Origin: Thermodesulfobacteriota bacterium
Lineage (GTDB): Bacteria; Desulfobacterota; DSM-4660; Desulfatiglandales; HGW-15
Reading direction: 5' to 3'
NCBI GenBank assembly: GCA_042573485.1
Contig: JBHPCX010000002.1
Coordinates: 26,984-90,983, forward strand
Length of the DNA stretch: 64,000 bases
The position numbers and the translations under genes were made by a program. Below are positions 25,414-48,180 of the stretch, piece after piece. The notes under the pieces were generated by a model, which had not been told where the DNA came from, made no database searches, and saw nothing but the letters and a program-made list of their open reading frames with translations. Within the stretch, counting starts at the first letter, position 1. Each line of letters starts with the position of its first letter.

Positions 25414-25527
25414 GTTCAGGATAATGCTGCAATAGCTATATGAAATCATTTTAAACAGCATTCAGGCTGCTTTTACATCAGGTGTTAATGCAAAATCTGC
25501 TGGAATTATAATGTGTTAAAATATTGA

Positions 25528-25543
25528 TGTGACCAAATGTGAC
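25528..25543 (+). repeat. Two TGTGAC direct repeats 10 bp apart (same motif as 55282-55319)
   Basis: gaTGTGACcaaaTGTGACag in an AT-rich non-coding gap. Confidence 0.3.
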
Positions 25544-26264
25544 AGATTTTTTATGAAATTTGTGTTTTATAGCCTCATTTAAATGTATCAAAAAGTGTGG
25601 ACTTCTTATCGTTATACGCACTTTTAAGACATGTTAAGGTTACTAATACCAAAGGTTAGTCTAACCTTTTCAAATACTGAGTTCAAGGTCATATATGTTG
25701 AAGATATCCAAAGTTTTAAACCGTATTGGAAACTGGGGATACATAGAGCAGATACATGCAATTCCAAGATATGACTTATTTGGGAAGTCTGAACTTTAGG
25801 AAAAGTGAAGATCAGTGCCACAAGTCATAAGTATAGAGTCAATCAAAGATCTCATTTACTTATATTATTCTTCTTTTCCAACATTACAATTGGATATTTT
25901 TCATTGCTTGATACAATTTGGGCACAGTAAGGGAATATTTAATTTTTCAAGATAAAAACCGGAATTTTAGCTTCTTTTTTTAACCTTTTTAGAATTATCA
26001 GTTCCTCAAATACGATTTGAATAAGATATCCTTTTTTTCAATCAACAAAATTTCAATCTTTTCAATATGAACTTATTTATATGGATTTTATTGTTTTTTT
26101 TCAGAAAGCTTTAAAAAATTTCAGTTAATCATTTCTGATACTTTAATCTCTGTTAATCCATATTTACTAACAATGAGAGCGCAGGTTTAAAAAACGGAAT
26201 ATAAAGTTCTTGTTTTCCGAACATCCTTAATATCTTATGTTGTCATTTCAATATGTTATGATCA

Positions 26265-26280
26265 TGGCACGCTGATTGCT
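26265..26280 (+). promoter_or_regulatory. Sigma-54 (-24/-12) promoter
   Basis: TGGCAC-gctga-TTGCT, a perfect match to the TGGCAC-N5-TTGCW consensus. It lies 94 nt upstream of the ATG at 26374, at the end of a 960-bp AT-rich ORF-free gap. Confidence 0.7.
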
Positions 26281-26373
26281 CTGTATAGAATGTGTTTATG
26301 AAGTTATCCGGAATAGTTATTTAAAACGCCGGACATTTTAAATAATAAAAAAAATGATACAGGAGAAATAAAT

Positions 26374-26784
26374 ATGAAAACAAAGGGCAAATATATCCTA
26401 AGTTACCTTAGTATTATTTTAATAACAGTTATTGCTGTCGGAACAGCCTGTTCGGCTGACAAAAACAAGACTATCGAGGGAATAGTAAATGACACTTACG
26501 AGATAGTTACAGACGACGATGAAGTATACTATATTACTGACAATGAGAAGGGCGAACAGATAATGGATCATGTCGGTCAAAGAGTACAAGCAACCGGTAT
26601 TATTAAGTATGATGAAGACATGGATAGCAACACAATAACTATTGAAAAATTCAGTGTAATTGAAGATAAGGGTGCTATCGAAGATGAAGGTGATTTTGAT
26701 GTAATAGATGATGAGGAAGATTTTGATATAATCGATGATGAAGATAATATTAACATAGTTGAAGAAGAGGATGATGAGGAATAA
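26374..26784 (+). CDS. Exported small protein: signal peptide, about 65-aa conserved core, then a hyper-acidic repeat tail
   Basis: 136 aa. RBS CAGGAGA. Signal peptide MKTKGKYILSYLSIILITVIAVGTAC (possible lipobox Cys). 24 of the last 40 residues are D or E, including the tandem DFDVIDDEE/DFDIIDDED encoded by a 27-nt duplication at 26692-26745. Confidence 0.7.
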   Translation: MKTKGKYILSYLSIILITVIAVGTACSADKNKTIEGIVNDTYEIVTDDDEVYYITDNEKGEQIMDHVGQRVQATGIIKYDEDMDSNTITIEKFSVIEDKGAIEDEGDFDVIDDEEDFDIIDDEDNINIVEEEDDEE

Positions 26785-26818
26785 TAGTTCCCAGATTATT
26801 CAAAGACCTCCTGTAGAC

Positions 26819-26851
26819 AGGGAAGATGTTGAATATCTTCCCTTTTCTATT
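26819..26851 (+). terminator. Intra-operon intrinsic terminator / attenuator hairpin
   Basis: aGGGAAGAT-gttgaat-ATCTTCCCt followed by TTTTCTATT, sitting between the first and second genes of the operon. Confidence 0.5.
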
Positions 26852-26879
26852 ATCAAGAAAAATAGATAGGAAAATAAAA

Positions 26880-27143
26880 ATGGAAAGTAACAGAGATAAT
26901 ACCATGACCATTACAGGTATAATCTATCCCTCAAAGCGGGATAATAAGGGAAAAATAATAGAAGTGCTAATAGACTCACTTGATGATGACCAGGAGACAT
27001 ATTTAGTTTTCCCGGGCAAAAGAAGCGTAGGACTGTTTGAGTCGCTTAATAAAAAAGTAGAAGTTTGTGGGAATCTCAGGGAAGATGAAAAAGGCAATTT
27101 AATATTAAATGTGAAAACATTTAAAAACCTGGAAGACACCTAG
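26880..27143 (+). CDS. Small cytoplasmic protein, paralog of the core of the 26374 product and of the 47866 product
   Basis: The track ORF is 26826-27143, but the ATG at 26826 lies inside the terminator hairpin, so I prefer the ATG at 26880 (88 aa). The core is TITGIIYPSKRDNKGKIIEVLIDSLDDDQETYLVFPGKRSVGLFESLNKKVEVCGNLREDEKGNLILNVKTFKNLED. Confidence 0.55.
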   Translation: MESNRDNTMTITGIIYPSKRDNKGKIIEVLIDSLDDDQETYLVFPGKRSVGLFESLNKKVEVCGNLREDEKGNLILNVKTFKNLEDT

Positions 27144-27152
27144 GGAGTAATA

Positions 27153-28259
27153 ATGGTTAGCACCGGCGATGAAAAGATAACAAACAACAGCACTCTCTCT
27201 CTGCTTGATAATGCAAGCCCCAATGCTCCTATCATAGCTCCTGAACTGAAAACACAGGAACAGATTGCAGCAGATGTTAATATGCCTCTTGATGCAAGAT
27301 TAGAGGCTTATGAGGATATAATGGAATCTGAAGTTGGTGATACCACACTAACCAGATCCAGAAATATAGAAAGGGAAATAGGTTTAAGACAGATATACTT
27401 GAAATTTGAAGGCAGTAATCCGACAGGAGCACAGAAAGACAGGATAGCCTTTTCCCAGGCAATGGATGCCCTCAGAAGAGGATTTGATTCCATAACAGTA
27501 GCCACATGCGGAAATTATGGTGCCGCAATGGCCCTTGCCTCATCAATGGCAGGACTCAGATGCATAACCTATATCCCTGAAAACTATCATACTAATAGAA
27601 CACGCGAAATGGAGAATTTCGGAGTTGAAATTGTAAGAGTTCCCGGAGACTATGAAGCGGCAGTAACGGCATCAAAAGAAAGAGCGGAAAAGGATGAAAT
27701 ATACGATGCCAATCCCGGAGGGGCTAATACTGATATCCAGTTAAGGGCATACGGAGAAATCGCCTATGAAATTTACGATGAACTCAGGGATGCCCCGGCA
27801 GTCGTAGCAGTTCCTGTATCAAATGGAACCACACTGGCCGGAATATATAGAGGCTTTGTAAGTCTTTACAGGAGAGGCAAAACATCACGAATTCCAAAGA
27901 TAGTGGCAGGATCTTCACACGGGAAAAATCCAATAATAAAAGCCTATTTAAAAAATATACCCACCTGTGAAGATCTCGAACCAGGTGTTATACGTGAAAC
28001 CGCTATAAATGAACCTCTCATAAACTGGCATGCCATTGATGGAGATCTTGCACTTTCGGCCATTCGAAAAACAGGAGGCTGGGCAGCCTATGCCAGCGAC
28101 AGGAACATGCTTGCGCATTCAAGATTACTGAGGGAAAAGGAGGGATTAAATGTCCTTCCTGCCTCTACTGCAGGTTTGATTATACTTATTGACTACCACA
28201 AAAAAATGCCATTACCGGGTGATCGGTATGTTGTGCTGCTCACAGGGAGAAAATCATGA
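27153..28259 (+). CDS. Fold-type-II PLP-dependent enzyme, threonine-synthase / cysteine-synthase-like
   Basis: 368 aa. Schiff-base Lys context FEGSNPTGAQKDR, with TCGNYGAA and a phosphate loop PVSNGTTLAG. The C-terminal region (INEPLINWHAIDGDLALSAIRKTGGW..ASD) is like threonine synthase. RBS GGGAG. Confidence 0.65.
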   Translation: MVSTGDEKITNNSTLSLLDNASPNAPIIAPELKTQEQIAADVNMPLDARLEAYEDIMESEVGDTTLTRSRNIEREIGLRQIYLKFEGSNPTGAQKDRIAFSQAMDALRRGFDSITVATCGNYGAAMALASSMAGLRCITYIPENYHTNRTREMENFGVEIVRVPGDYEAAVTASKERAEKDEIYDANPGGANTDIQLRAYGEIAYEIYDELRDAPAVVAVPVSNGTTLAGIYRGFVSLYRRGKTSRIPKIVAGSSHGKNPIIKAYLKNIPTCEDLEPGVIRETAINEPLINWHAIDGDLALSAIRKTGGWAAYASDRNMLAHSRLLREKEGLNVLPASTAGLIILIDYHKKMPLPGDRYVVLLTGRKS

Positions 28260-29347
28260 TCAAATATCCTGAAGGAAACGCTATAGTTTACTGTGAAGGA
28301 GCTTTTGAAACTCCCAATGGGAAGACTGCCCATGGGTTGGTGAGAAGGACGGACAGGTATGATGTTCTGTCAGTAGTGGATTCAACTAAAGCCGGATTGG
28401 ACGCCGGCCTGCTGCTTGATGGTAAAGCTGCAGGCATACCTGTTCATGCAAGCATAAAGGAATCCTTGGATCATTTTTCCTTGTGGGGTCAAAAGCCTAC
28501 CCACCTTGTTATTGGTTTAGCACCCGATGGAGGGAGAATCAGCAAAAACGCAAAGGAAGATATTAAGGAAGCTATCAAGCTCGGTTTGAATATTGATTCC
28601 GGGCTTCATGACTTTTTATCAGAGGATGCTGAAATATCTAAATTGGCCAGAGAAAAAGGAGTTGAAATCAGGGATGTAAGGAAAACTCCTCCCAGAGAAG
28701 AACTTCATTTTTTTTCAGGTAAAATTGAAAAGGTCAAGTCATTGGTGATAGCCATACTTGGTACGGACAGCGCTATTGGTAAAAGGACAACTGCCTGGAT
28801 ACTAAAGGACGCCCTTGAAGATATGTCATACAAGGCTGAATTGATAGGTACGGGTCAGACAGCCTGGATGCAGGGTGTGCGTTATGGAATAATACTTGAT
28901 TCACTTATTAACGATTTTGTTTCCGGGGAAATTGAAGACGCTGTGTGGCAGGCCTGGCAGGAGGTTTCTCCTGACATTATCATAATTGAAGGTCAGGGAA
29001 GCCTTATGAATCCGGCATATCCAGGTGGATTTGAAATACTGGCAGCCGGAAGGCCTGATATTGTTGTACTTCAGCATGCTCCGGCCAGAAAGGAATATGA
29101 TGGTTTCCCCGGGTATGCCATACACCCTCTGGAAAAACAGATCCAAGCCATTCAGCTTCTTTCCGAAAAACACGTTGTTGCCGTTACAGTAAATCATGAG
29201 GGGCTTGAAAAAGAAACGATTCCATCCATTTGTGAAGAAATAACCCAAAGCACCGGTTTGCCCGCATTCGACGTGCTCCTGGAAGGTGCTAATGGTCTTG
29301 CCAAGCTGATCACAAGTCATCTGAAAAAATTCAGTAAAGCAGGGTAA
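28256..29347 (+). CDS. DUF1611-family P-loop protein (family of the D-glutamate N-acetyltransferase DgcN)
   Basis: 363 aa. N-terminus NAIVYCEGAFETPNGKTAHGLVR and the P-loop-like ILGTDSAIGKRTTA. The start overlaps the upstream stop (ATGA). Confidence 0.6.
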   Translation: MIKYPEGNAIVYCEGAFETPNGKTAHGLVRRTDRYDVLSVVDSTKAGLDAGLLLDGKAAGIPVHASIKESLDHFSLWGQKPTHLVIGLAPDGGRISKNAKEDIKEAIKLGLNIDSGLHDFLSEDAEISKLAREKGVEIRDVRKTPPREELHFFSGKIEKVKSLVIAILGTDSAIGKRTTAWILKDALEDMSYKAELIGTGQTAWMQGVRYGIILDSLINDFVSGEIEDAVWQAWQEVSPDIIIIEGQGSLMNPAYPGGFEILAAGRPDIVVLQHAPARKEYDGFPGYAIHPLEKQIQAIQLLSEKHVVAVTVNHEGLEKETIPSICEEITQSTGLPAFDVLLEGANGLAKLITSHLKKFSKAG

Positions 29348-29352
29348 TAGAC

Positions 29353-31689
29353 ATGTCTGAATTAAATTCTGACCCGCTGGAAATACTTAAAGTTATTCCT
29401 CTTATGGAAGTAGGTCCTGCGCGCTTGAAAGAGAATCGCATGCAGGTTTCTTACAGGATTAATAATGGAAAAGAAACTGATTCCTTTGACCTTATTTACA
29501 AGTTCGAAGAGCAGGTATTTATTCCCAATGACCCTGTTTCCATAAATTTAGCCAGTATTATTGCCGCACAGGTGGCGATCAATTACGGACTTTTTTGTGA
29601 GAAAATAATTTTCCATGGGTTATATGACAAAAATGATATAAACTTTATTAAAAAGGCTGCTGAAAATACTGCCAGAGAGATATATGTAAAAAAATTTCTT
29701 GAGCCCAATCCTTATCTAATCGGTTCCGCTTCTGAAATACCTTTAACAAAGAAGAAGAACTACTTAGCTGCCGAACTGGAGTTCGATAATAGTAACAAAA
29801 ATAGGATCGTCAAACAAAAAAAGGATCGGTCAATAAAGGGAAACAAGTGTGCCGTGCTTTCAAGCGGAGGAAAGGAGAGTCTTCTAACCTATGGTATCAT
29901 GAAGGAAATAGGATACGATACTCATCCTGTCTTCATAAATGAATCAGGAAGACACTGGTTTACCGCTCTCAATGCCTATCGTTATTTCAGTCCCAAAGTT
30001 CCTGAAACAGCCAGGGTCTGGACAAACGCTGACCGTGTTTTCAATCGTATGCTTAAACATCTGCCATTTATCCGTCCGGATTTTTCAAAACTGAGATCAG
30101 ACGAATATCCAATAAGACTCTGGACTGTAGCTGTTTTTCTTTTTGGCGCGCTTCCAATTATGAAAAAAAGAAATGTCCAATATCTCCTGGTAGGAGATGA
30201 ACATGATACAACTGAAAAAGTTAACTATAAGGGAATCCAACATTATGATGGCCTATTTGATCAAAGTATATTCTTTGATAGATTTATCACGGACTATTTT
30301 GAAAAAAAGGATTGGGGAATTAGCGTATTTTCCATACTGAGAACATTCTCCGAGTTCTTGATTGAGAAAGTACTTATTGAAAGATACCCATACTTGCAGG
30401 AACACCAGGTATCCTGTCACGCGAGCCATATGGAAGGCGAAAGGGTAAAGCCTTGCGGACATTGTGAAAAATGCAGGCGGGTTGTTGCTATGCTGTCAGC
30501 CCTTGACAGAGATCCTGTTCTTTGCGGATATACAAAAGAAAATATTAAACACTGTCTCAAAAGCCTTTCTATAAAAAGTATTCACCAGGAAATAAAGGCA
30601 ATAGAACATTTAAACTTCGTTTTAAATCAAAAGAGAATAGATGACTTTTCCGGTATAGTTTCCCATAAGGCGGCTGAGCATCCGGAAATTATGAAACTGC
30701 GTTTTGATCCGGAGAAATCACCTTTGGATTATGTTCCGGATGACCTTCATGTCCAAATATATGACCTGCTTAAAGATCACATACCGGGAGTAGTGAAGCG
30801 GGACGGGAAAGTATGGGTGGATTACAAACTTCCCAATCCTAAAAAGGCACCTGTTAAAAATGAAACAACAGGAAAATCAACCGTAAAAAATGTAAATATT
30901 AAGATTGAACATGATTATCTTCTTGGCGAACTTACCTGGCCTGAAGCTCAAAAAAAATTCAAAGAAGTTGATATAGCATTGTTGCCTGTTGGAGCCATTG
31001 AACAGCACGGGCCCCATCTTCCACTCGATTCGGATGCCTATGATGCAGAGTATCTTGCCAAAAAGGTTGCTGAATCCTGTAAAGATCCAAAACCGATTGT
31101 CATGCCCCTGATTCCCTATGGTGTGTCCTACCATCATGAAGATTTTAGCGGCACCATCAGTGTCAGCCCCGAAACACTTTCTGCTATTGTTTATGAGACA
31201 GGGATGAGCATAGCGCGCCATGGAATCAGGAAGTTGGTGATAATAAACGGGCATGGGGGAAACAGCCCTGCTCTTCATTTTGCTGCCCAGATGATAAACA
31301 GGGATGCACATATATTTACATGTGTGGATACAGGGGAGACAAGTGATCCTGATATAAATGCCATGACTGAAACACCAAATGATGTGCACGCCGGGGAGAT
31401 TGAAACCAGTACATCACTTGTTACACGTCCGGATCTTGTGAGATCAGACAAAATAAAGAAATTTATTCCCAGGTTTTCAAACCGATACCTGGATTTTACA
31501 TCAAAGAGAAGTATCGGCTGGTACGCTATGACATCAAAAATTTCAAAATCCGGTGTTATGGGTAATCCATTAAAGGCTAACAGGGAAAAGGGAATGCGAA
31601 TCTGGGATAGGATGATAAATAATCTCGTTGAATTTGTTGAAGATCTCAAAAAAATGACACTCGATGAAATCTACCAAAAACGGTATTGA
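29353..31689 (+). CDS. Three-part fusion: unknown N-domain, PP-loop ATP pyrophosphatase (QueC/Dph6-like), and creatininase-family amidohydrolase (MftE/ArfB family)
   Basis: 778 aa. PP-loop CAVLSSGGKES (nt 29851-29880). VGDEHD. Zinc knuckle SCH..PCGHCEKCRR. The C-terminal roughly 260 aa (from about nt 30904) carry LPVGAIEQHGPHLPLDSD and IINGHGGN, typical of creatininase. Confidence 0.6.
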   Translation: MSELNSDPLEILKVIPLMEVGPARLKENRMQVSYRINNGKETDSFDLIYKFEEQVFIPNDPVSINLASIIAAQVAINYGLFCEKIIFHGLYDKNDINFIKKAAENTAREIYVKKFLEPNPYLIGSASEIPLTKKKNYLAAELEFDNSNKNRIVKQKKDRSIKGNKCAVLSSGGKESLLTYGIMKEIGYDTHPVFINESGRHWFTALNAYRYFSPKVPETARVWTNADRVFNRMLKHLPFIRPDFSKLRSDEYPIRLWTVAVFLFGALPIMKKRNVQYLLVGDEHDTTEKVNYKGIQHYDGLFDQSIFFDRFITDYFEKKDWGISVFSILRTFSEFLIEKVLIERYPYLQEHQVSCHASHMEGERVKPCGHCEKCRRVVAMLSALDRDPVLCGYTKENIKHCLKSLSIKSIHQEIKAIEHLNFVLNQKRIDDFSGIVSHKAAEHPEIMKLRFDPEKSPLDYVPDDLHVQIYDLLKDHIPGVVKRDGKVWVDYKLPNPKKAPVKNETTGKSTVKNVNIKIEHDYLLGELTWPEAQKKFKEVDIALLPVGAIEQHGPHLPLDSDAYDAEYLAKKVAESCKDPKPIVMPLIPYGVSYHHEDFSGTISVSPETLSAIVYETGMSIARHGIRKLVIINGHGGNSPALHFAAQMINRDAHIFTCVDTGETSDPDINAMTETPNDVHAGEIETSTSLVTRPDLVRSDKIKKFIPRFSNRYLDFTSKRSIGWYAMTSKISKSGVMGNPLKANREKGMRIWDRMINNLVEFVEDLKKMTLDEIYQKRY

Positions 31690-31693
31690 GTAA

Positions 31694-32758
31694 ATGAAAA
31701 TTAGAAACATAGAAGCCTGGCCTGTATCCATGAAATTGAGTGAACCTTATTCGATAGCCTATGAGACTATTCATGAAGTCACCAATGTATTTATCCGTGT
31801 GGAAACCAGCAGAGGGATAAACGGGTTCGGATGCGCGGCACCTGATGAGAATATAACCGGTGAAACACCTGAGACTGTAATAAGGAGCCTGAATGACAAA
31901 ATATTTCCATTGATAAATGGCTCTGACGCCCTTAGACCCGTAATGCTCATTGAAAAACTTAGACCAACTTTAAAGGGAAATGCCTCTGCACTTGCCGCAA
32001 TAGATATGGCTCTTCTCGATATTCTCGGCAAAAGTTGCAATATCCCGCTGTGGAGGATTCTCGGAGGTTATAGGGACAGAATAAAAACGAGCGTCACTAT
32101 AGGGATATTACCCATTGCAGAGACAATTGAAAAAGCTATGGGTTGGGTAAACCAGGGATTTAGATGCCTCAAGCTAAAGGGAGGAATAGAAGTTGATTCT
32201 GATATACAGAAAATAATCAGGGTTCGGGAAGAAGTGGGGAAAAACATCGAGTTAAGGTTTGATGCCAATCAGGGTTATACACCTGAACAGGCAATAAGAT
32301 TTGTTAATGAAACAAGGAAGGCTAACCTTGAACTATTGGAACAACCAACCCCTAAAGGACAACCGGACCTGCTGAGGAGTGTTACAAATAAAGCCCATAT
32401 TCCGATTATGGCGGATGAAAGCCTCATGACTTTAAGAGACGCTTTCAGGATTGCCCGCCGTGAGCTGGCGGATATGGTTAATATTAAGTTGATGAAAGTG
32501 GGCGGAATAATGGAATCGCTCCAGATCAATTCGGTGGCAAGATCTGCCGGACTCGAAGTAATGGTTGGTTGTATGGATGAAGCAGGACTTGGAATTGCCG
32601 CAGGTCTTCACTTTGCTCTCGCGCGACCAAACGTTGCATACGCCGATCTGGACGGCAATATCGGTTTAATTGGTGACCCATCCTCTAATGCTTTAAAATT
32701 AAGAGATGGAATTCTTTACCCCAGCAATAAACCAGGCCTTGGATATGATCTGCCTTAG
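31694..32758 (+). CDS. Enolase-superfamily (MLE subgroup) dipeptide / N-acyl-amino-acid epimerase
   Basis: 354 aa. KxK motif CLKLKGG, metal ligands in RFDANQG, LEQP and MADES, and a second catalytic Lys in NIKLMKVGG. Confidence 0.75.
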   Translation: MKIRNIEAWPVSMKLSEPYSIAYETIHEVTNVFIRVETSRGINGFGCAAPDENITGETPETVIRSLNDKIFPLINGSDALRPVMLIEKLRPTLKGNASALAAIDMALLDILGKSCNIPLWRILGGYRDRIKTSVTIGILPIAETIEKAMGWVNQGFRCLKLKGGIEVDSDIQKIIRVREEVGKNIELRFDANQGYTPEQAIRFVNETRKANLELLEQPTPKGQPDLLRSVTNKAHIPIMADESLMTLRDAFRIARRELADMVNIKLMKVGGIMESLQINSVARSAGLEVMVGCMDEAGLGIAAGLHFALARPNVAYADLDGNIGLIGDPSSNALKLRDGILYPSNKPGLGYDLP

Positions 32759-32875
32759 GATTTTACAATAGGAAATAACATTTAAGAGATTAAATGTATT
32801 ATTTTAATAAACATGGCAAAATAGTGTAGAATAATTATTCAACATCCGCTATCTTATTGGTGGTTTCTTTTCTTA

Positions 32876-33313
32876 TTAAGTTCCGTTGTGTGAAATTAAT
32901 TTTTCTCGCTGGTAAACCAATATAGACGCAATACGGAGTGCGCCAAGCACAAACAAAACTGTAGAAAGAGCATATAACATTTCTTGCGCTATTTCATGCT
33001 TGAAAAGTGAAATAAGCATTTCACGTATTATGAAGACAATCGCAGAATCAATTATGAATGTAAGCCGGAGTTTATGTGAGTCGAAATAATCAATAAGAGA
33101 ACGGGATAGCTCAATCAACACATAAAGTGTGAGAACGTCTGCTATAACATTTATGTATTGTCCTGTGATCCCTTTGAATTTAAATAATTCCCATATAGTT
33201 ATGAATAATTGAACTGTGCCTATAGCGATACCAAGTATTATAAAAATGAGAATAATACCAAAAACAATATCTATTACCTTATTAAAATATTCACTAATTT
33301 TTTTACTTATCAT
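32876..33313 (-). CDS. PsiE-like small integral membrane protein
   Basis: 145 aa with 4 TM segments. The pattern VLTLYVLIELSRSLIDYF...IIREMLI resembles phosphate-starvation-inducible PsiE. Confidence 0.45.
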   Translation of the reverse strand: MISKKISEYFNKVIDIVFGIILIFIILGIAIGTVQLFITIWELFKFKGITGQYINVIADVLTLYVLIELSRSLIDYFDSHKLRLTFIIDSAIVFIIREMLISLFKHEIAQEMLYALSTVLFVLGALRIASILVYQREKLISHNGT

Positions 33314-33417: not shown

Positions 33418-34428
33418 TCAACATATCCTTGGTAATTGCTCGGCTGTAAGGGTATCTATGATTCGCTTTCCCCCTATCCTTGTCTTCATGACAACCATGC
33501 CCGGATTCTCCGAAACCACCTCTCCTATTACCCCAGCCTCCCTGCCATTGGTATCTCCTCTCATAACTTCAAAGGTTTTTTCCACTTCTTCCGGTGAAAC
33601 AAAAGCCAGAAGCTTTCCCTCATTCGCTAAATAGAGCGGATCAAAGCCCATTAACTCGCATATTCCCGCGACTTCATCCCTGACGAATATACTTTCTTCA
33701 TTTATAATAATCCCAACTCCTGAACTCATGGCGATCTCATTTAAGGCTGTACCGACACCTCCCCTGGTCGGGTCCCTTAATGCGTGTATTCCCCTGCTTG
33801 ATTCAAGCATAGAATTAACCATATGATTCAGGGCGGCTGTATCACTTGAAACCGGGCAATCAAAATTCATACCTTTTCTTTTCAGGAGTATTGCAATTCC
33901 ATGATCACCGACACTCCCACTGAGGATAATTTTATCCCCGGGTTTTGCATTGCGTCCCGATACATCAACACCTTCGGGAATTAGTCCTATACCTGATGTA
34001 TTTATAAAAATCCCATCCACAGATCCTTTCGGCACAACCTTGGTATCGCCTGTAACAATAATCACCCCTGCATCAAGGGCCGAAGCGTGCATGCTTTCAA
34101 GTATTTTATTGAGGTCCGACATGGAAAATCCTTCTTCAATAATCAGGCCTGAGCTTAAAAAAAGGGGCTCTGCACCGCACATGGCTATATCATTAACAGT
34201 ACCGTTGACTGCCAGGTCACCTATATTTCCCCCCGGGAAAAAAATAGGATCAACAGTGTAACTGTCCGTTGAAAATGCCAGCTTTATCCCATTGATATCA
34301 AGCACTGCTCCATCATCGAGATGGGATAGTACGGGATTTTCAAATAAGGGCAGAATCATCTCCGATATAAGGTTGTGAGATATCTTGCCTCCGCTCCCAT
34401 GGTCTAGCAGTATTTTATTATATTTCAT
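33418..34428 (-). CDS. hypE: Hydrogenase maturation protein HypE (carbamoyl dehydratase)
   Basis: 336 aa with an AIR-synthase-like fold and the C-terminal PRIC motif. Confidence 0.9.
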   Translation of the reverse strand: MKYNKILLDHGSGGKISHNLISEMILPLFENPVLSHLDDGAVLDINGIKLAFSTDSYTVDPIFFPGGNIGDLAVNGTVNDIAMCGAEPLFLSSGLIIEEGFSMSDLNKILESMHASALDAGVIIVTGDTKVVPKGSVDGIFINTSGIGLIPEGVDVSGRNAKPGDKIILSGSVGDHGIAILLKRKGMNFDCPVSSDTAALNHMVNSMLESSRGIHALRDPTRGGVGTALNEIAMSSGVGIIINEESIFVRDEVAGICELMGFDPLYLANEGKLLAFVSPEEVEKTFEVMRGDTNGREAGVIGEVVSENPGMVVMKTRIGGKRIIDTLTAEQLPRIC

Positions 34429-34499
34429 TATATATCCTTATGTAAAACATCCCGATTCAATAGTATGTTTTCGATATCCCTTATCAATAATTCTTCCCG

Positions 34500-35603
34500 T
34501 TATAAAACCTGCGTTTTGTCATAATATCGGTAATAAGCGGCGCAGGTGCCTTCACTTGAGACCATACACGGACCAATCGGGTTTATCGGAGTGCATATCT
34601 TCTTGTACGCAGGACATTCCGGTGGTATCTTCATACCTCTTAGAATATCACCGCAGGCGCATTCTTTTGACTCCGGGGATTTATGGACACAAATATTAAA
34701 AACTTTTTCCGCGTCATAATTCCGGAAGGCTTCTCTTATTTCCAGGCCGCTATCCCTGATCATACCCAGGCCTCTCCATGATGCGTCCTTTTTTATAAAT
34801 ACCCTGGACATGACCTCACAGGCCTTTCTATTGCCTTCAAAGGTAACAACCCGCTTATATGCATTGCTAAGCTCCGGACAGCCTTTTTCAATCTGTTCAA
34901 CTAATATGTTTATAGCCTGCAGTAAATCATTAGGCTCAAAACCAGCGATAACACTGGGAATCCGATACTTTTTAAAAAAAGAAGCGTATGCGTTTGTCCC
35001 TATTATTACGGAAACGTGTCCAGGCAGGATAAAACCATCAATCCTTATATCCTGGCTGTACATAAGGGCATCCAACGCCGGTGGGATAATCTTGAGGAAA
35101 GAATATACAAAAAAATTTTTAAGGCCTTTCTCATAGGCAGATATTATAGAAGCCGCGATTGTCGGGGCAGTAGTTTCAAAACCTACACCTGAAAAAACAA
35201 TCCTTTTATCCGGGTTTTCTTCGGCCAGTTTAAGGGCGTCAAGGATTGAATAGACAACCCTGATATCCCGACCTTCCCCACGCTCTTTTTGAAGGGAGGT
35301 ACTCGTTCCGGGAACTCTCATCATATCCCCGAAGGTCACGAGCATAACGTCATCATTGCGTCCTGTTTTAATAAATTTGTCGATCTCTTGTTGAGTAGTA
35401 ACGCATACGGGACATCCCGGGCCTGAAAGAAGATCGATGGTTGCAGGGAGCATTGATCTTATCCCGCTCCTGAAGATGGAGACGGTATGGGTTCCACACA
35501 CTTCCATAAGTCGCACATTCTTTTTGCTGTTCTTTTTTATATTGGCAAGGAGCTTCTCTGATATCTCAAGGTCCTTGTATTCCTCAATATGTTTAATTGG
35601 CAT
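34500..35603 (-). CDS. hypD: Hydrogenase maturation protein HypD
   Basis: 367 aa with GPGCPVCVT, GFETTAPT and PGHVSVI. Confidence 0.9.
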   Translation of the reverse strand: MPIKHIEEYKDLEISEKLLANIKKNSKKNVRLMEVCGTHTVSIFRSGIRSMLPATIDLLSGPGCPVCVTTQQEIDKFIKTGRNDDVMLVTFGDMMRVPGTSTSLQKERGEGRDIRVVYSILDALKLAEENPDKRIVFSGVGFETTAPTIAASIISAYEKGLKNFFVYSFLKIIPPALDALMYSQDIRIDGFILPGHVSVIIGTNAYASFFKKYRIPSVIAGFEPNDLLQAINILVEQIEKGCPELSNAYKRVVTFEGNRKACEVMSRVFIKKDASWRGLGMIRDSGLEIREAFRNYDAEKVFNICVHKSPESKECACGDILRGMKIPPECPAYKKICTPINPIGPCMVSSEGTCAAYYRYYDKTQVL

Positions 35604-35624
35604 GACATATCCATATGATTTATT

Positions 35625-37916
35625 TCATAACTTAGACACAGAATGTGCAGCGACAACTGCCTGACCCAGGCTGATGCCTCCGTCATTTGGGGGCAGCAGA
35701 CGGTGAATGTATACCTCGAAGCCTTTTTCCTTAAGAGACTTTATAAAACCCGATAGAAGTATTGAATTTTGAAAAGCACCCCCGCTCAGGGCAACCCTGT
35801 TGAGGCCATTATCCGCTCTTATTTTCTCACAGAGATGTGAAAACATCTTAATAATAGTCATGTGAAATTTCGCGCTTATTATATGAGGGTTAACCCCCTT
35901 TTTTATATCTTCGACAACTCCTGCTATAACAGGTTGGAGCATAACCCTGTATATATCCCCCGAACTCCATTCATAATCGTAGAACCCATCTATATTTTCA
36001 GCGGCCATCATCTCCAGTTCCATGGCTGCCTGGCCCTCAAAAAAAACATTATTCCTTACACCGATTATGGAAGCGACTCCATCAAACAAACGTCCAAGAC
36101 TTGATGTTACGGGGGAATTGACCTCTTTACCCATCATCTCGATCAGAATACCGGCTTTTTTTAAATCAACTCCGTTAATAAAAGGTATGCCCAGGTTCCG
36201 GTACTCATCACCAAAAGTATTATAAAGATAACTTATAGCCATCCGCCATGGCTCCTTGACTGCAGCCTCACCTCCCGGCATCGGAACCTTTGATAGCGTG
36301 GCACATTGAAGGAATTTCTCTGCTTCAGCGATCAGGATTTCCCCCCCCCACATGGTGCCGTCAAGTCCATAACCTGTACCGTCAAAGGAGAGGCCGATAA
36401 CCTCGCCTTCAAGCCTGTTTTCAGCCATACAGGCAGCAATATGAGCATGGTGGTGCTGAACCTGTATTTTTGGAACATCATTCTGCTCAAAGGCATACCT
36501 GGTGCTAAGATAATCTGGATGATAATCACAGGCAATAATCTCAGGTTCAATGCATAACATCTGTCTCATATGCTCAATAGTCCTGCAGAATAATTCATAG
36601 GTAATCATATTCTCCAGGTCTCCCAGATGCTGGCTTAAAAATGCCTTGTTTTCCCTGGTCAGGCATATGGTATTTTTCAGCTCGGCCCCGCAAGCAAGAA
36701 TCCGGGGAATTCTTTCTTTTAATAAGATAGGTGCCGGAACATAGCCCCTTGACCTGCGGATAGGCTGGATCACTTCTCCAGTCTTCTTTAAAATGGAGTC
36801 ATCAACAGGAATGTATATATCCCTGTCATGGATTAAAAAATAATCAGCGATCCCTTCAAGCCTGTTAAAAGCGTCATTATTATCAATAATCAAGGGCTCT
36901 CCGCTGATATTCCCGCTTGTCATGACCAGGGCAATGAAACCATGACTTAGAAGAAGGTAATGGAGAGGAGTATAAGGGAGCATTACTCCAAAATAATTAT
37001 TCACGGGAGAAACTTCATATGATATTGGATTATGTTTCCGTTTTTTCAAGAGAACGATTGGACGTATTAAAGATGTAAGGATTATTTCTTCTTCATGATT
37101 CACATAGGCATATATGTTAACCTTTTGCAGGTTATATGACATGAGGGCTAATGGCTTTTCTTCACGATGTTTTCTTTCTCTAAGATCGATAACCGCCTTG
37201 CTGTTTTCGGCATCTACTACAAGATGAAACCCGCCCAAACCCTTAACAGCCAGAATACATCCCTCGTTTAACAAAACTGCCGCCTGTCTTACTGGATTGG
37301 GAGTATCTATCTTTTTCCCGGAACTGTCATGGAGCGAAACCTTCGGACCGCAATTCAAACAGGCATTCGGCTGTGCATGAAACCTCCTGTCTGCCGGATC
37401 ATCATACTCCGCCATGCAACTATCACACATCTGAAAATTTTTCATGGAGGTGTTTGGCCTGTCATAGGGGATTTTATCAATGATCGAATAACGAGGCCCG
37501 CAGTTAATACAGTTTATAAAGGGATATAGATATCGGCGATTTCCGGGGTCAAATAGTTCCCGAAGACAATCATCACAGATCGACACATCCGGCATTATCA
37601 AGGCTGAAACTTGCTTATCGCTTTTACTCTCGGTGATTACAAGTTTTGTCATGTCCCTGAAAGACTCAGGCTTTATCATGATATCAGTAATAACAGCAAG
37701 GATCGGGCTTTTTTCCTTTAGGCTGGTTAAAAAATCCTCTATGTCAGACTGGTTTCCCTCTATATGGGCGAATAGACCTGAAGAGGTGTTTGCAATTTCC
37801 CCCTTAAGGTTGAACCTGCCTGCAAGCCGGTACAGAAACGGGCGGAACCCCACTCCCTGGACAATACCTCTTATTTCCAGCCCTTTAGCAATTAGATTAA
37901 TATCCCTGGGATCCAT
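35625..37916 (-). CDS. hypF: Carbamoyltransferase HypF
   Basis: 763 aa. Acylphosphatase domain (GIVQGVGFRPFLYRLA), two zinc-finger pairs (CDDC..CINCGPRYSI and CDSC..CLNCGP), and YrdC and Kae1-like domains. Confidence 0.9.
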   Translation of the reverse strand: MDPRDINLIAKGLEIRGIVQGVGFRPFLYRLAGRFNLKGEIANTSSGLFAHIEGNQSDIEDFLTSLKEKSPILAVITDIMIKPESFRDMTKLVITESKSDKQVSALIMPDVSICDDCLRELFDPGNRRYLYPFINCINCGPRYSIIDKIPYDRPNTSMKNFQMCDSCMAEYDDPADRRFHAQPNACLNCGPKVSLHDSSGKKIDTPNPVRQAAVLLNEGCILAVKGLGGFHLVVDAENSKAVIDLRERKHREEKPLALMSYNLQKVNIYAYVNHEEEIILTSLIRPIVLLKKRKHNPISYEVSPVNNYFGVMLPYTPLHYLLLSHGFIALVMTSGNISGEPLIIDNNDAFNRLEGIADYFLIHDRDIYIPVDDSILKKTGEVIQPIRRSRGYVPAPILLKERIPRILACGAELKNTICLTRENKAFLSQHLGDLENMITYELFCRTIEHMRQMLCIEPEIIACDYHPDYLSTRYAFEQNDVPKIQVQHHHAHIAACMAENRLEGEVIGLSFDGTGYGLDGTMWGGEILIAEAEKFLQCATLSKVPMPGGEAAVKEPWRMAISYLYNTFGDEYRNLGIPFINGVDLKKAGILIEMMGKEVNSPVTSSLGRLFDGVASIIGVRNNVFFEGQAAMELEMMAAENIDGFYDYEWSSGDIYRVMLQPVIAGVVEDIKKGVNPHIISAKFHMTIIKMFSHLCEKIRADNGLNRVALSGGAFQNSILLSGFIKSLKEKGFEVYIHRLLPPNDGGISLGQAVVAAHSVSKL

Positions 37917-41494: not shown

Positions 41495-43294
41495 TTATGC
41501 GCCTTGAAGCCCGGAGTAAACAGCTTCCATTTTTTGTTCAAATGTGTCTCCCTCCAGATGTCTTGCATTGGAGGGGCATGCCACAACACACATACCACAG
41601 GATTTGCACTTAAATACATCCGTCGTGGATATTCTCTTTTCCTCGATATCCCTGGATTCGGCTGCATTGTAATAGCAGACTGAAACACAGACACCACAGC
41701 CGGAACATCGATCCGGATTCACCTCCACCGCAGGGAGTGATTCCTGAATGCCGACCGACAGGCATGCCTTACATGAGATACAGGGGCCGCAGGTAAGACA
41801 CCGTTTTGCCTCTTCAACGGCCTCAGGAAGGGTAAATCCCTTTTCAAATAGTTGAAAATGCATTCTTTTCTCCGGAGGAATCCAGAGAACTTCAGGTTCC
41901 ATCTCGTAGACCCTCCTTCGGGGAATATCCTGGGACTCATAATCTCTTTTTCTATCTTTGTTTATCAGGACTCCGTTCAGATATCTCTCGATGGATTCAG
42001 CAGCTACAAGTCCGTCCTTCATTGCATCCACCATAAAACCGATCCTTTTGACATCACCTCCGATAAAGACCCATTCTTTTTTGAGATTCTGTAAGGTCAA
42101 AGAATCAAGCGCCAAATGCCCTCGTTCGTTGAAAAGGTCTTCCTTTTCGAGAGAAAGGATATCCGGCCCCTGCCCGACCGTGATGATCAGGACATCGCCT
42201 TCCAGTGTGATTGTATCCTGCATATCAAATTCGGGATTAAATCCCGATTTGTCATAGACCCTTACGCATCTGGGACACACGATCTTTTTCATTCTTTCTC
42301 CCGCACCGATGATTTGACTCACCCCACGGGAATAGACTATCCGTATACCTTCTTCCCAGGCACCCCTTATTTCGTCCCAATCTGCGGGTATACGGTCTTT
42401 TGAACTCCTGTCCTCGGATTCAAGGCATACTATTGAAGCATCTCCCGAAAGTCTACGGACGGTCCTGGCTACATCAAAGGCCACATTACCGCCACCAATA
42501 ACAAGGACCTTTTTCCCCTTAAAATAATGGGGTTTGATATTGCCGTGACTGACTTCATAAAGAAATGTCTGCCCGTACATGACACCGGAAAGGTCCTGCC
42601 CGTCCACCTCTTTCCTGTTAAATGTCAGGGTACGCGGAGCGGGTGTTCCGGTGGCTATGAATACGGCCTGATATCCTTCATTTTTAAGCCTTTCAAGGTC
42701 CCACTTACCGTTTCCAACCTTGGTATTGTATTTCACATCAATCCCAACCAGCCTGACAAGATTTTCAAGACAGGAGGTCAGTGTTTTTTCAGGCAATCGG
42801 TAACGAGGGATAAGCCACAGGGCTCCGCCCAAGCGATCCGAAGATTCAAAAATAGTCACCCTGTATCCCCTCTTACTCAAATCGAAGGCACACATAAGTC
42901 CGGCAGGTCCCCCACCTACAACAGCGACATTTTCTTTGTTCTTAATTATTGATTGTTCTTCTTTTTTATCCAGCCGGTAGATGTAAGTATCCGCAATGAA
43001 TCTCTTAAGAAGTCTCCTCCTGATTGCCCCGCCCTTAGCCTGGTAATTGCACTCAAGCTCGCACAAGCCACACACATAACCGCATATGGGGAAAAACGGA
43101 TTTCTTTCATAGAGATAATCCCCTATTTGAGCAATTCCATCTGCTGCACTTTCCGGATCTTCGGGAAGGAGACCAATCAGAACATTGGTTCTTTGAATGT
43201 CCTCGTTAATGGGACAGCGTATCTGGCAGGGGGGTAAAAACTGTCTCACAGCGGGTTCAACTCTTGTAGAGTCTGTACTAAGCGATTTCCACAT
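41495..43294 (-). CDS. GltD/NfnB/SudA-like FAD- and NAD(P)H-dependent oxidoreductase with a C-terminal 2x[4Fe-4S] ferredoxin domain
   Basis: 599 aa. N-terminal Fe-S Cys (CQIRCP, CGYVCGLCELEC), VAVVGGGPAGLMCAFDLSKRGYRVTIFESSDRLGG, a second dinucleotide fold VLVIGGGNVAFD, and C-terminal CSGCGVCVSVC and CKSCGMCVVACP. Confidence 0.7.
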   Translation of the reverse strand: MWKSLSTDSTRVEPAVRQFLPPCQIRCPINEDIQRTNVLIGLLPEDPESAADGIAQIGDYLYERNPFFPICGYVCGLCELECNYQAKGGAIRRRLLKRFIADTYIYRLDKKEEQSIIKNKENVAVVGGGPAGLMCAFDLSKRGYRVTIFESSDRLGGALWLIPRYRLPEKTLTSCLENLVRLVGIDVKYNTKVGNGKWDLERLKNEGYQAVFIATGTPAPRTLTFNRKEVDGQDLSGVMYGQTFLYEVSHGNIKPHYFKGKKVLVIGGGNVAFDVARTVRRLSGDASIVCLESEDRSSKDRIPADWDEIRGAWEEGIRIVYSRGVSQIIGAGERMKKIVCPRCVRVYDKSGFNPEFDMQDTITLEGDVLIITVGQGPDILSLEKEDLFNERGHLALDSLTLQNLKKEWVFIGGDVKRIGFMVDAMKDGLVAAESIERYLNGVLINKDRKRDYESQDIPRRRVYEMEPEVLWIPPEKRMHFQLFEKGFTLPEAVEEAKRCLTCGPCISCKACLSVGIQESLPAVEVNPDRCSGCGVCVSVCYYNAAESRDIEEKRISTTDVFKCKSCGMCVVACPSNARHLEGDTFEQKMEAVYSGLQGA

Positions 43295-45241: not shown

Positions 45242-46879
<1,638 letters not shown>

Positions 46880-47167
46880 TTATTGTAATACTGCGAGAAT
46901 ATCATCCTCTCGCATAATCAAATGCTCAATGCCGTCTAACTTAATTTCACTACCCGAATATTTGCCAAACATTACGCGGTCTCCTTTTTTCACATCCATG
47001 GGTATTTTTTTTCCTTTATCATCTACCTTTCCTGATCCGACAGCTACTACTTTGCCTTCCTGAGGTTTTTCCTTTGCTGTATCAGGTATTACAATTCCTC
47101 CTTTTGTCTTTTGTTCCTCTTCGATTCTTAAAACAAGAACTCGATCGTTTAATGGCTTTATTTTCAT
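46880..47167 (-). CDS. groS: Co-chaperonin GroES
   Basis: [14 protein letters not shown]... The ATG at 47167 has better RBS spacing than the track start at 47173. Confidence 0.9.
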
Positions 47168-47218
47168 ATTCATATCCTCCTTTTCAAATAATTCATCTTG
47201 CTCTAAATCTTAGTCAAC

Positions 47219-47869
47219 TTATACTGTTATCTTTTTTAAATCTATTGTTAGTATATATTGGTTTTCACATGGAATTTTTAAAAGAGAAAAACCAAGCTGC
47301 CGGGCCAGAGAGAGCATGTGAATGTTTTCCGCTAATACATAACCACTCATTCTTTCAATATTTTTATCCCGTGCAATCATGATGAGATTTTCCAATAGGG
47401 CCCTTCCAATACCTTTTCCTTGATATTCATCACGTACAACCACTGCAAATTCTGTGTCTAATTGAAAAGGATTAAACATGTATCTGGTAACTCCCAATAT
47501 TTTATCATTTGAATCACTTTGATCTAAGGCTACAAGCGCCATATCCCTATGATAGTCAATCTGTGTAAATCTGGTTAACATGTCATGTGACAATTCCTTT
47601 AAGGGGCTGAAAAATCGATAATATATAGTTTTTGGTGACAGTGCCTTGAATAGGTCGATTAACATGGACACATCTCCCTTTTTAATCGGGCGTATAAATA
47701 CTTCTATCCCTGTTCTGGTAATAACTTTTTTCTCATATTGAAGTGGATATGAACTAATTGCCATATGATCTTGAAAGGCTGCCTTATGCTCTCCATAATT
47801 TGTATACTCATCATATGTTGTTGAATGTGTTTTCAATTTAATAGCCCTATTATTTTCATTTAGAGTCAA
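47219..47869 (-). CDS. GNAT acetyltransferase resembling the C-terminal domain of Pat-type protein acetyltransferases
   Basis: 216 aa with IRPIKKGD...YYRFFSP...SHDMLTRFTQIDYHRDMALVA and the acetyl-CoA loop QGKGIGRAL. The TTG start overlaps the upstream stop. An internal ATG at 47764 is an alternative start. Confidence 0.65.
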   Translation of the reverse strand: MTLNENNRAIKLKTHSTTYDEYTNYGEHKAAFQDHMAISSYPLQYEKKVITRTGIEVFIRPIKKGDVSMLIDLFKALSPKTIYYRFFSPLKELSHDMLTRFTQIDYHRDMALVALDQSDSNDKILGVTRYMFNPFQLDTEFAVVVRDEYQGKGIGRALLENLIMIARDKNIERMSGYVLAENIHMLSLARQLGFSLLKIPCENQYILTIDLKKITV

Positions 47870-48111: not shown

Positions 48112-48164
48112 CACAAATTCACTCACCACAATAAATCATCTGTTTTTTACCATGAAAATATTAA

Positions 48165-48180
48165 AGCAATACCCATGCCA
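48165..48180 (-). promoter_or_regulatory. Sigma-54 (-24/-12) promoter
   Basis: The minus strand reads TGGCAT-gggta-TTGCT. It lies about 43-55 nt upstream of the small-protein start. Confidence 0.6.

Follow-up and report, generated by a model that had tools for sequence, protein, structure and literature searches.

We analysed a stretch of 64,000 nucleotides from a Thermodesulfobacteriota bacterium (contig JBHPCX010000002.1, assembly GCA_042573485.1), called here the window. It contains an operon of six genes, g1 to g6, on the forward strand. The first two encode small proteins of a predicted OB-fold (oligonucleotide/oligosaccharide-binding) family. More precisely, g1 (26374-26784) corresponds to a putatively exported accessory protein, and g2 (26880-27143) to a cytoplasmic protein of 87 amino acids. 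Four enzymes follow. The product of g3 (27153-28259) is a fold-type II pyridoxal phosphate (PLP) enzyme similar to ThrC, and that of g4 (28256-29347) is a DUF1611 protein. g5 (29353-31689) encodes a fusion of 778 amino acids, with an N-terminal half (N-half, amino acids 1-430, 29353-30642) and a domain of the creatininase/MftE family (30928-31638). Finally, g6 (31694-32758) encodes a predicted dipeptide or N-acyl-amino-acid epimerase of the enolase superfamily. The intergenic gaps are 95, 9, -4, 5, and 4 nt, in this order. The six co-directional open reading frames (ORFs) and the last four spacings had been described in an earlier reading of the sequence (hereafter the original prediction). 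All of its enzyme-family assignments, including the DUF1611/DgcN link and the PP-loop, were upheld by Pfam and NCBIfam searches.

The same reading placed a σ54 promoter before the operon, and the element holds. TGGCACgctgaTTGCT (26265-26280, + strand) is located 94 nt upstream of the g1 start codon. It matches the consensus TGGCAC-N5-TTGCT, with the GG and GC dinucleotides at the exact -24/-12 spacing. It is also the sole exact TGGCAC-N5-TTGCW in the 64 kb; shuffled sequences gave a mean of 0.07, and 6 of 100 shuffles had at least one. The element ends an AT-rich gap of 960 bp (25414-26373) with 29.1% GC, compared with 43.3% in the window. This gap presents a single ORF of 65 amino acids, and no Rfam family matched in it. 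Between g1 and g2, there is a hairpin with an 11-bp stem and a 3-nt loop, then T-rich (UUUUCUAUUAU, 26819-26843, + strand). The spacer of 95 nt, folded whole, had a minimum free energy of -20.2 kcal/mol (z = -1.9). The hairpin is a possible attenuator or partial terminator after g1. Downstream of g6, a terminator-like hairpin with a T run (32846-32863, + strand) lies in the convergent spacer before a gene of the PsiE family (32876-33313, - strand).

The conserved unit is g3-g4-g5-g6, four enzymes that we call the cassette. A scan of one genome per species with the g5 alignment gave 585 matching stretches, of which the best 80 were all full-length, and we compared 82 non-redundant loci. The same scan with the single g5 protein as a query gave no matches. 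The order g3-g4-g5-g6 is kept in 65 of the 82 loci, distributed over more than 10 phyla. The other 17 consist of nine loci cut by contig ends, five without g6, and three with only g3 and g5. Identity to the window across the loci is 64-90% for g3, 56-72% for g4, 52-66% for g5, and 52-73% for g6. The original prediction had proposed a gene-neighbourhood survey, and the co-occurrence of g3 to g6 across genomes is its outcome.

The operon had also been considered an orphan. This does not agree with the distribution of g5, which has more than 3,000 homologous proteins at E <= 1e-5, besides the 585 stretches in species-representative genomes. The best 120 homologs are full-length and 59-77% identical. 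The hosts belong to Desulfobacterota, Acidobacteriota, Gemmatimonadota, Planctomycetota, Latescibacterota, Krumholzibacteria, Calditrichota, KSB1, Spirochaetota, and other lineages. Among the Desulfobacterota, Desulfosarcina variabilis, D. alkanivorans, and the strain NaphS2 are cultured carriers of the cassette.

Public annotations might suggest that six unrelated housekeeping genes (threonine synthase, creatininase, muconate cycloisomerase, and the like) are adjacent by chance. Relatives of g5 are named "creatininase family protein", and g3 exceeds the cutoff of PRK06381. We consider this explanation very improbable, and we rejected it since the synteny contradicts it. The order is kept in more than 10 phyla, the genes overlap or nearly abut, and fusion proteins join the parts. 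Moreover, g3 fails TIGR00260 and differs from ThrC at three active-site positions, and both g5 and g6 remain under every equivalog cutoff.

The first enzyme, g3, presents a PALP domain (187 bits). Its PLP lysine, K95, lies in the motif NPTGAQKDR and aligns with K61 of the Thermus thermophilus ThrC (1uim). The protein is thus a threonine-synthase/cysteine-synthase-like PLP enzyme, as had been stated. In NCBIfam, it matches the "threonine synthase" model PRK06381 with 424 bits (cutoff 266). Conversely, TIGR00260 (thrC) gives 96 bits under a cutoff of 167, and the remaining ThrC models are missed too. In the alignment with 1uim, T88 is replaced by tyrosine, N154 by aspartate, and R160 by threonine. 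At least 70% of 55 g3-family sequences keep the tyrosine and the aspartate, and the position of R160 varies. We take T88, N154, and R160 to be the residues that bind the phosphate of O-phosphohomoserine. Because these positions differ from ThrC, we do not call g3 a threonine synthase; this candidate function was rejected on the three substitutions and the missed TIGR00260. The family is always found within the cassette. The label that annotation pipelines give it, from the equivalog model PRK06381, is probably a systematic misannotation.

The g4 protein consists of a Rossmann-like N-terminal domain and a P-loop domain (DUF1611_N, 89 bits; DUF1611, 215 bits). From residue 169, the P-loop reads GTDSAIGKRTT. 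The only strong named NCBIfam match is DgcN (NF041892), with 155 bits under a cutoff of 480. Its relatives in the PDB are 2g0t, 7xrj, and 2obn. To judge from these matches, g4 is distantly related to the D-glutamate N-acetyltransferase DgcN, which agrees with the family proposed for it.

At the end of the cassette, g6 belongs to the MR_MLE family. The alignment with YkfB places its catalytic residues at K160/K162, D190, E216, D241, and K265. Consequently, the complete KxK/D/E/D/K set attributed to this epimerase is present. The best match in the PDB is YkfB, an L-Ala-D/L-Glu epimerase (1jpm/1tkk, 229 bits), followed by 3rit and 3jva. These dipeptide epimerases and the Bacillus cereus N-succinyl-Arg/Lys racemase (2p88) align over their full length with 186-229 bits. 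Likewise, the motif D319-L-D321 of g6 is conserved in the family and aligns with DFD in YkfB and DLD in 3rit. In characterised dipeptide epimerases, this DxD motif presumably binds the free N-terminal ammonium of the dipeptide. A difference appears at Arg24 of YkfB, in the 20s loop, which we take to bind the glutamate side chain. It is replaced by Glu23 in g6, and at least 70% of 57 sequences keep this glutamate. Therefore, the substrate of g6 would be different, and possibly cationic. Against the equivalog models, g6 obtained 234 bits for NF041118 (cutoff 500), 95 for NF011708 (343), and 149 for DgcA (400).

The fusion protein g5 has the composition that was originally proposed: a domain without a known family, a PP-loop ATPase, and a creatininase/MftE/ArfB-family domain. 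Its N-half starts with a conserved domain (amino acids ~10-150, motif NYGLFC), and the first ~150 residues match no known family. The PP-loop ATPase and a ribbon of four cysteines follow. The PP-loop SSGGKES occupies positions 170-176 and reads SSGGK(E/D)S in the family. All 20 aligned sequences have S170, S171, G172, G173, K174, and S176, together with C355, C368, C371, and C374. Among 25 distant homologs, three of the ribbon cysteines do not vary, and the fourth, C374, is present in at least 90%. The columns of the g5 alignment have a mean identity of 74%. We take the cysteine pattern C-x12-C-x2-C-x2-C to be QueC-like.

A profile search of the PDB with g5 recovered the creatininase domain and the bare PP-loop only. 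With the AlphaFold model, Foldseek matched the N-half to QatC (E 3.7e-3), QueC (3bl5, TMt 0.69), and Cap9, and the C-terminal domain to creatininases. In NCBIfam, MurL, the UDP-MurNAc-L-Ala-L-Glu epimerase (NF041275, 447 positions, cutoff 700), is the only family matched by the N-half family, in 9 of 25 members, and the MurL scores are 21-38 bits. The best match corresponds to the protein P0239 (E 7e-10 over MurL positions 130-354). This intermediate aligns to residues 150-427 of g5 at E 6e-28. Such scores are consistent with distant homology to MurL only. Stand-alone homologs of the N-half also exist; they have ~500 amino acids and 31-44% identity.

The C-terminal domain of g5 (amino acids 526-762) matches PF02633 with 238 bits (gathering score 31.3), and PDB creatininases at E 1e-16. 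It stays under the cutoffs of the specific families: 147 bits for MftE (172), 105 for creatininase (235), 71 for IolN (245), and 32 for ArfB (180). The motifs EQHGPHLPLDxD, NGHGGN, and HAGEIETS are invariant, as are E550, H552, D561, H634, and E682/E684, which we take to be the metal ligands. The domain is therefore a strong member of PF02633 with its putative metal motifs conserved, and no mycofactocin genes accompany it. We know of no characterised member of the creatininase family that is fused to a PP-loop ATPase. Some g5 homologs are named 7-cyano-7-deazaguanine synthase by JGI. A survey of the QueC family does not mention the creatininase fusion (PMC13329287).

Five variant loci clarify which parts of the cassette are essential to it. 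L086 shows a σ54 activator, PALP, DUF1611, and N-half genes, then YkuD and an M15-type peptidase. In L087, genes for RimK, AstE/AspA, and a GNAT-nitrilase precede PALP, a GCS2 carboxylate-amine ligase, the N-half, and a separate creatininase. L088 presents an HDAC-family deacylase, then an unknown gene, then the N-half; this group faces GNAT-DUF1611-PALP. In L089, a σ54 activator accompanies PALP, the N-half, a creatininase as a separate gene, and an ADP-forming CoA ligase. The fifth locus consists of PALP, DUF1611, and the N-half. The PALP gene and the N-half are kept in every one of them. In addition, the metagenomic protein P0124 is a fusion of DUF1611 with the N-half. From the variant loci and this fusion, we conclude that the invariant pair is the PLP enzyme (g3) and the PP-loop protein. 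The amide-forming partner (DUF1611 or GCS2) and the amide-cleaving partner (creatininase or HDAC) are interchangeable. The enolase-type epimerase is an addition of the main form; g6 is absent from eight main loci and from all five variants.

The contig of L086 (JGI 3300044959, protein P0335) carries the source label "Candidatus Methanosuratincola sp.". Its gene content, with nos-type genes, a YkuD L,D-transpeptidase, and two σ54 activators, indicates that the contig is probably bacterial and mis-binned into an archaeal metagenome-assembled genome.

The small proteins behave differently from the enzymes. By eye, the N-terminus of g1 looks like a signal peptide or a lipoprotein start. Its acidic tail has 24 D/E in 41 residues, and a unit of 27 nt is repeated 2.1 times. 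Both features agree with the earlier description of an exported protein with a hyper-acidic repeat tail. The match of g1 to DUF5818 is weak (16.5 bits, under the cutoff). As had been proposed, g2 is cytoplasmic and paralogous to the core of g1, with 22-24% identity and a place in the same family alignment. This alignment also includes the product of 47866-48129. A homolog search with g2 found only three proteins, near-identical. Its AlphaFold model reached a pLDDT (predicted local distance difference test) of 85, with one of five models confident and a shallow alignment of five sequences. The best Foldseek matches of this model were RPA, SSB, PriB, and OB domains of tRNA synthetases (template modelling score 0.5-0.6). 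According to the model, g2 is an OB fold. In other loci, the OB relatives comprise cytoplasmic forms and forms with a signal peptide, and some of each have acidic tails.

Relatives of g1 and g2 are present in only ~15-20 of the 82 loci, mostly in Desulfobacterota. They lie upstream of the cassette and often on the opposite strand. Since they occur in few loci and on either strand, the cassette is a unit of four genes, and g1 and g2 are lineage-specific accessories. The unit of six genes that was first proposed is thus reduced to g3-g6. The idea that the pathway modifies the acidic tail of g1 also becomes unlikely, because most genomes with the cassette lack g1 and g2. As g1 and g2 are not conserved alongside the cassette, we rejected the tail as the pathway substrate.

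The original prediction stated that the operon had no regulator or transporter. Nevertheless, both types of gene are found elsewhere in the window. A gene at 48404-49813 (- strand) encodes a σ54 activator with a receiver-like N-terminal domain (Sigma54_activat, 223 bits). It is 53-58% identical to the activators adjacent to the cassette in 11 other loci, compared with ~36% to unrelated σ54 response regulators. By this orthology, the activator, 16 kb from the operon, is likely its cognate regulator.

The receiver of this activator looks degenerate, and the same applies to the orthologs in L002, L009, L012, L042, L048, L053, L054, L061, L067, and L078. The N-terminal acidic pair and the conserved lysine are replaced, and 4-9 residues are inserted after the aspartate. 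The comparison was made with an Escherichia coli NtrC sequence. A histidine kinase gene is usually not nearby, and the activator may be phosphorylation-independent.

A palindrome, GAAC-N5-GTTC, emerged from the comparison of three σ54 promoters of the window. Exact copies occur within 250 bp upstream in 22 of 48 σ54-like promoters from the window and the loci, with a background of 0.05 sites/kb. Of 31 sites within 1 kb of the promoters on either side, 27 are situated between -300 and -1. The window has six copies where 0.84 are expected, a seven-fold excess. Downstream of the promoters that bear this candidate enhancer are genes for OB proteins, Hsp20, Usp, and DksA-like proteins, as well as g3-g4-g5. 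In many other loci, σ54-like promoters precede the small-protein genes and g3.

Three of these enhancer-promoter pairs lie between 45 and 55 kb of the window. The first one, on the - strand, has an enhancer at 48340-48352, 160 nt upstream of a σ54-like promoter (48165-48180), and would serve a unit at 45242-48180. Its first gene is the third OB paralog (47866-48129), followed by a GNAT-like gene recognised by a sequence motif (47219-47869), GroES (46880-47173), and GroEL (45242-46864), all on the - strand. Only 45 nt separate the stop codon of the GNAT-like gene from groES, and groES-groEL appear to be co-transcribed with the OB and GNAT-like genes. No CIRCE element was found anywhere in the window. 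The predicted σ54 control of groESL would be unusual. The second pair is formed by the exact enhancer GAACcaccgGTTC (49849-49861, + strand) and the weaker σ54-like site TGGCATgatccATGCT (50050-50065, + strand), with an Hsp20 gene downstream (50094-50591, + strand). Hsp20 is also downstream of an enhancer and a σ54 promoter in L006 and L076. The third pair, on the - strand, comprises an enhancer at 55013-55025 and a σ54-like promoter at 54932-54947 (unit 54490-55025), after which lies the gene for a LapA-like membrane protein of 72 amino acids (54490-54708). A paper on the σ54 regulome of Desulfovibrio vulgaris presents no GAAC motif and no chaperone regulon.

Upstream of the operon promoter, the candidate enhancer GAATataaaGTTC (26197-26209, + strand) has one mismatch and is 68 nt from the -24 element. 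Its position matches that of exact sites at -67 to -78 in L042, L054, L062, and the window promoter 54947. We tentatively propose it as an enhancer of the operon promoter. Another site with one mismatch is found at -273 (25992-26004). The 16 nt upstream of TGGCACgctgaTTGCT, namely CAATATGTTATGATCA, share 15 of 16 nt with the flank of the promoter at 48180. The operon likely belongs to the regulon of the activator 48404-49813, as far as these comparisons indicate. This activator would also control groESL, hsp20, and other OB proteins.

The genes within 8 kb of the cassette in the other loci give a second view of its context. GroEL/ES genes occur in ~8 loci and Hsp20 in six; this chaperone link suggests heat or proteotoxic stress. 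Genes for DksA-like proteins are found in ~8 loci, and zinc-ribbon genes in ~8. A membrane protein of the YitT/DUF2179 family, named from Pfam-annotated orthologs, is encoded in the window at 53055-53933 (+ strand). In 14 loci, the first gene after g6 encodes a homolog with 45-62% identity to it, and in nine more the corresponding position is occupied by a shorter DUF2179 protein, which gives 23 loci with DUF2179. A candidate role for the protein 53055-53933 is that of exporter or partner in the pathway.

Magnesium transporters are also recurrent. CorA is near the cassette in ten main loci (L008, L013, L026, L027, L043, L057, L063, L065, L067, and L074) and in L087. MgtE is present in the window (51318-52670) and in L004. 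Their recurrence in several phyla hints at a link with cation homeostasis. In the Desulfatiglandales/NaphS2 group, a set of polyamine genes lies directly upstream of an acidic-tail OB protein and the cassette (L013, L017 from NaphS2, L021, and L072, positions ~1-4200). It encodes an arginine decarboxylase, a saccharopine-dehydrogenase-family protein (carboxyspermidine-dehydrogenase-like), a PLP decarboxylase, and an arginase-family protein (agmatinase-like).

We consider it somewhat probable that g3-g6 constitute a conserved, uncharacterised, ATP-dependent pathway for a small molecule. It would act on a substrate derived from an amino acid, and its expression would form part of a heat-shock-like regulon. 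For g4 (DgcN), g6 (Ala-Glu epimerase and DgcA), and the N-half of g5 (MurL), the closest characterised relatives all act on the α-centre of an N-acyl or peptidyl amino acid. In the proposed scheme, the ThrC-like enzyme g3 would make or transform an amino acid. The DUF1611 protein g4 would then form an N-acyl or peptide-type amide. Subsequently, the α-centre beside the carboxylate would be inverted by g6, by the MurL-like domain of g5, or by both. The PP-loop of g5 might activate the carboxylate with ATP for this epimerisation or, alternatively, for amidation. Finally, the creatininase-family domain of g5 would cleave a protecting or cyclic amide, by removing the acyl group or opening the ring. 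The output may be a D-configured or amidated amino acid or dipeptide, which could protect against stress or be built into the envelope. Of the products first suggested, a small molecule with a D-centre remains a good guess, and the modification of the g1 tail is improbable.

A more specific version is also considered, although we hold it as doubtful. The cassette would make a new stress metabolite, D-configured or amidated and possibly cationic. The DUF2179 protein would export or handle it, and the σ54 heat-shock-type regulon would control it. In a bolder version, the MurL/QueC-like domain installs the unit on a peptidoglycan stem or a protein terminus.

Among the closest known systems is the pair DgcN-DgcA (EC 2.3.1.312 and 5.1.1.25), which turns D-Glu into N-acetyl-L-Glu (PMC11747546). 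Like the cassette, it combines a DUF1611 acyltransferase and an enolase-superfamily racemase that acts on an N-acyl amino acid. This likeness supports a different direction, in which D-amino acids or peptides from peptidoglycan or necromass are salvaged. Acylation, racemisation, and deacylation would convert them to the L form, and the PLP enzyme would then deaminate it. The resemblance of g4 to DgcN, and of g6 to DgcA and the Ala-Glu epimerase, agrees with this route. In addition, the amidohydrolase domain would complete the known three-step logic of stereo-inversion. The operon of the N-succinyl-amino-acid racemase of B. cereus reportedly follows the same logic. Genes for an M15 peptidase, YkuD, and a β-lactamase domain adjoin the variant cassettes in L086 and L088, and the host lineages are typical of sediments.

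However, DgcN-DgcA lacks the PLP enzyme and the PP-loop/amidohydrolase fusion of the cassette. Moreover, g4 and g6 are separated in the cassette, and its regulation is of a stress type rather than catabolic. The matches to DgcN (155 against 480 bits), DgcA (149 against 400), and the Ala-Glu epimerase are all far under the curated cutoffs. Uptake systems for peptides or amino acids are not recurrent near the cassette, and a PP-loop step that consumes ATP is unusual for salvage. Likewise, g3 is nearest to biosynthetic ThrC-type enzymes and not to dehydratases, and the cassette is co-regulated and clustered with chaperones instead of catabolic genes. With no uptake genes nearby, a cost in ATP, a ThrC-like enzyme, and a regulon that includes chaperones, the cassette more likely synthesises a stress metabolite than serves salvage. 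We regard salvage as unlikely. By analogy, the cassette may be seen as the acylation, racemisation, and deacylation logic of DgcN-DgcA with two new steps.

Other pathways share only the logic, and none of their enzymes is homologous to those of the cassette at the family level. The routes to N-acetylglutaminylglutamine amide (NAGGN; Ngg/AsnO) and D-cycloserine (DcsC/D/E/G) produce amino-acid derivatives by acyl transfer and ATP-dependent formation of an amide or a ring. The D-cycloserine route adds a PLP β-replacement and a racemase, and NAGGN is a solute of osmotic stress.

The relatives of the g5 N-half lead to another explanation, the modification of a macromolecule. Under this view, a protein N- or C-terminus, a peptide, or a peptidoglycan stem would receive a residue from the MurL/QueC-like domain, or have one epimerised by it, and trimming would fall to the MftE-like domain. 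In Desulfobacterota, the targets would be the co-regulated OB proteins, with the acidic tail of g1 among them. MurL is reported by Feng et al. (JACS, 2017) to be ATP-dependent, and it epimerises a terminal glutamate. The MurD2-MurL route to D-Glu belongs to Xanthomonas peptidoglycan, and MurL is the only named family with detectable similarity to the N-half. The size of the stand-alone N-half proteins is also close to that of the MurL model. This distant homology with an enzyme acting on a peptidoglycan precursor favours a macromolecular substrate. Nevertheless, the scores are far under the MurL cutoff, the first 150 residues of g5 are unmatched, and most genomes have the creatininase-family fusion. 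In the Pfam-annotated loci, no MurD2 or other mur gene was seen beside the cassette.

The QueC family (QatC and Cap9), which adenylates a carboxylate and then forms an amide, shares with g5 the PP-loop fold and the four-cysteine spacing. The fold resemblance to QatC and Cap9 agrees with the modification of a macromolecule. Cap9 joins a deazaguanine to the N-terminus of a protein, and a similar modification of QatB has been proposed for QatC (10.1101/2025.04.06.647259; PMC13279940). However, g5 has no match to PF06508 (QueC) in Pfam, its context is neither queuosine nor defence, and the sequence similarity is limited to the PP-loop. MftE, a peptide-processing enzyme, gives a further argument in favour through its score of 147 bits with the C-terminal domain. 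The position of g2 is another, since it abuts g3 with a 9-nt gap here and overlaps it in L002.

On the other hand, about three quarters of the loci have no relatives of g1 and g2, which are often divergently transcribed where they occur. No other short ORF family is kept across the 82 loci as a precursor or target for a RiPP-like or protein-modification system (RiPP, ribosomally synthesised and post-translationally modified peptide). Besides, g6 has the DxD motif, which in characterised dipeptide epimerases binds the free N-terminal ammonium of a dipeptide, and no PADLOC defence family matched the six proteins. With this last result (0 of 6), we rejected an anti-phage function of the type of QatABCD or type IV CBASS. 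On balance, the modification of a macromolecule seems improbable.

Several observations weigh against the small-molecule stress pathway that we prefer. What is observed comprises the gene order, the domain families, the catalytic motifs, the promoter and enhancer motifs, and the recurrent neighbouring genes; all the chemistry proposed above is inferred, and so are the direction in which the pathway runs, its product, and the signal that induces it. On paper, a second epimerase-type activity in the same pathway is superfluous. The g3 alignment indicates a protein without the phosphate-site residues of threonine synthase. The g5 model is moderate (pLDDT 65.6, although residues 10-100 reach ~90). 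The nearby Mg2+ transporters and polyamine genes would also fit ionic stress. Upstream, the operon promoter has only enhancers with one mismatch; the sole exact site is downstream at +176 (26441-26453), in the signal-peptide region of g1. Because of this, the membership of the operon in the regulon rests mainly on orthology and flank similarity. Finally, no σ54 promoter was found in most loci outside the Desulfobacterota, so the regulation may be lineage-specific.

All the domains come from known superfamilies, and the cassette is no new kind of biology. In the literature searched, the cassette, the g5 fusion, the MurL-like clade, and the enhancer-defined σ54 chaperone regulon are undescribed. 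Full-text searches did not recover the cassette, which agrees with the earlier statement that no characterised pathway combines these families. A cassette of four enzymes with ~55-75% identity over more than 10 phyla, undescribed in that literature, represents a sizeable gap in bacterial metabolism. Its carriers belong to dominant lineages of sediments, such as Desulfobacterota, Acidobacteriota, and Gemmatimonadota. The genomic context leads to testable substrates for DUF1611, the MurL-like PP-loop clade, the ThrC paralog, and the DUF2179 membrane proteins. A chaperone regulon driven by σ54 (groESL without CIRCE, hsp20, and OB-fold proteins) would be an unusual control of heat-shock genes. If the stress metabolite is real, it would be a new class of stress protectant common to more than 10 phyla of sediment bacteria. 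The cultured hosts Desulfosarcina variabilis, D. alkanivorans, and the strain NaphS2 permit experiments.

Other genes of the window deserve a brief description. Beyond the PsiE-family gene and convergent with the operon, there are hydrogenase-maturation-like genes (33418-37916, - strand). Their order is an AIRS-domain gene (HypE-like), a HypD-like gene (by eye), and a HypF-domain gene, none of them recurring beside the cassette elsewhere. The flanking genes for MATE, peroxiredoxin, MDH, and HypE never recur near the cassette in the other loci. Besides the site inside g1, exact copies of GAAC-N5-GTTC lie inside ORFs at 2299-2311 and 41887-41899. Three small genes of the + strand, from the 45-55 kb island that also contains the YitT and MgtE genes, do recur near the cassette in other genomes. 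They encode a protein of 134 amino acids (50849-51253), a zinc-ribbon protein of 87 amino acids (52693-52956, in eight loci), and a protein of 107 amino acids that resembles a carbohydrate-binding module by eye (54042-54365).

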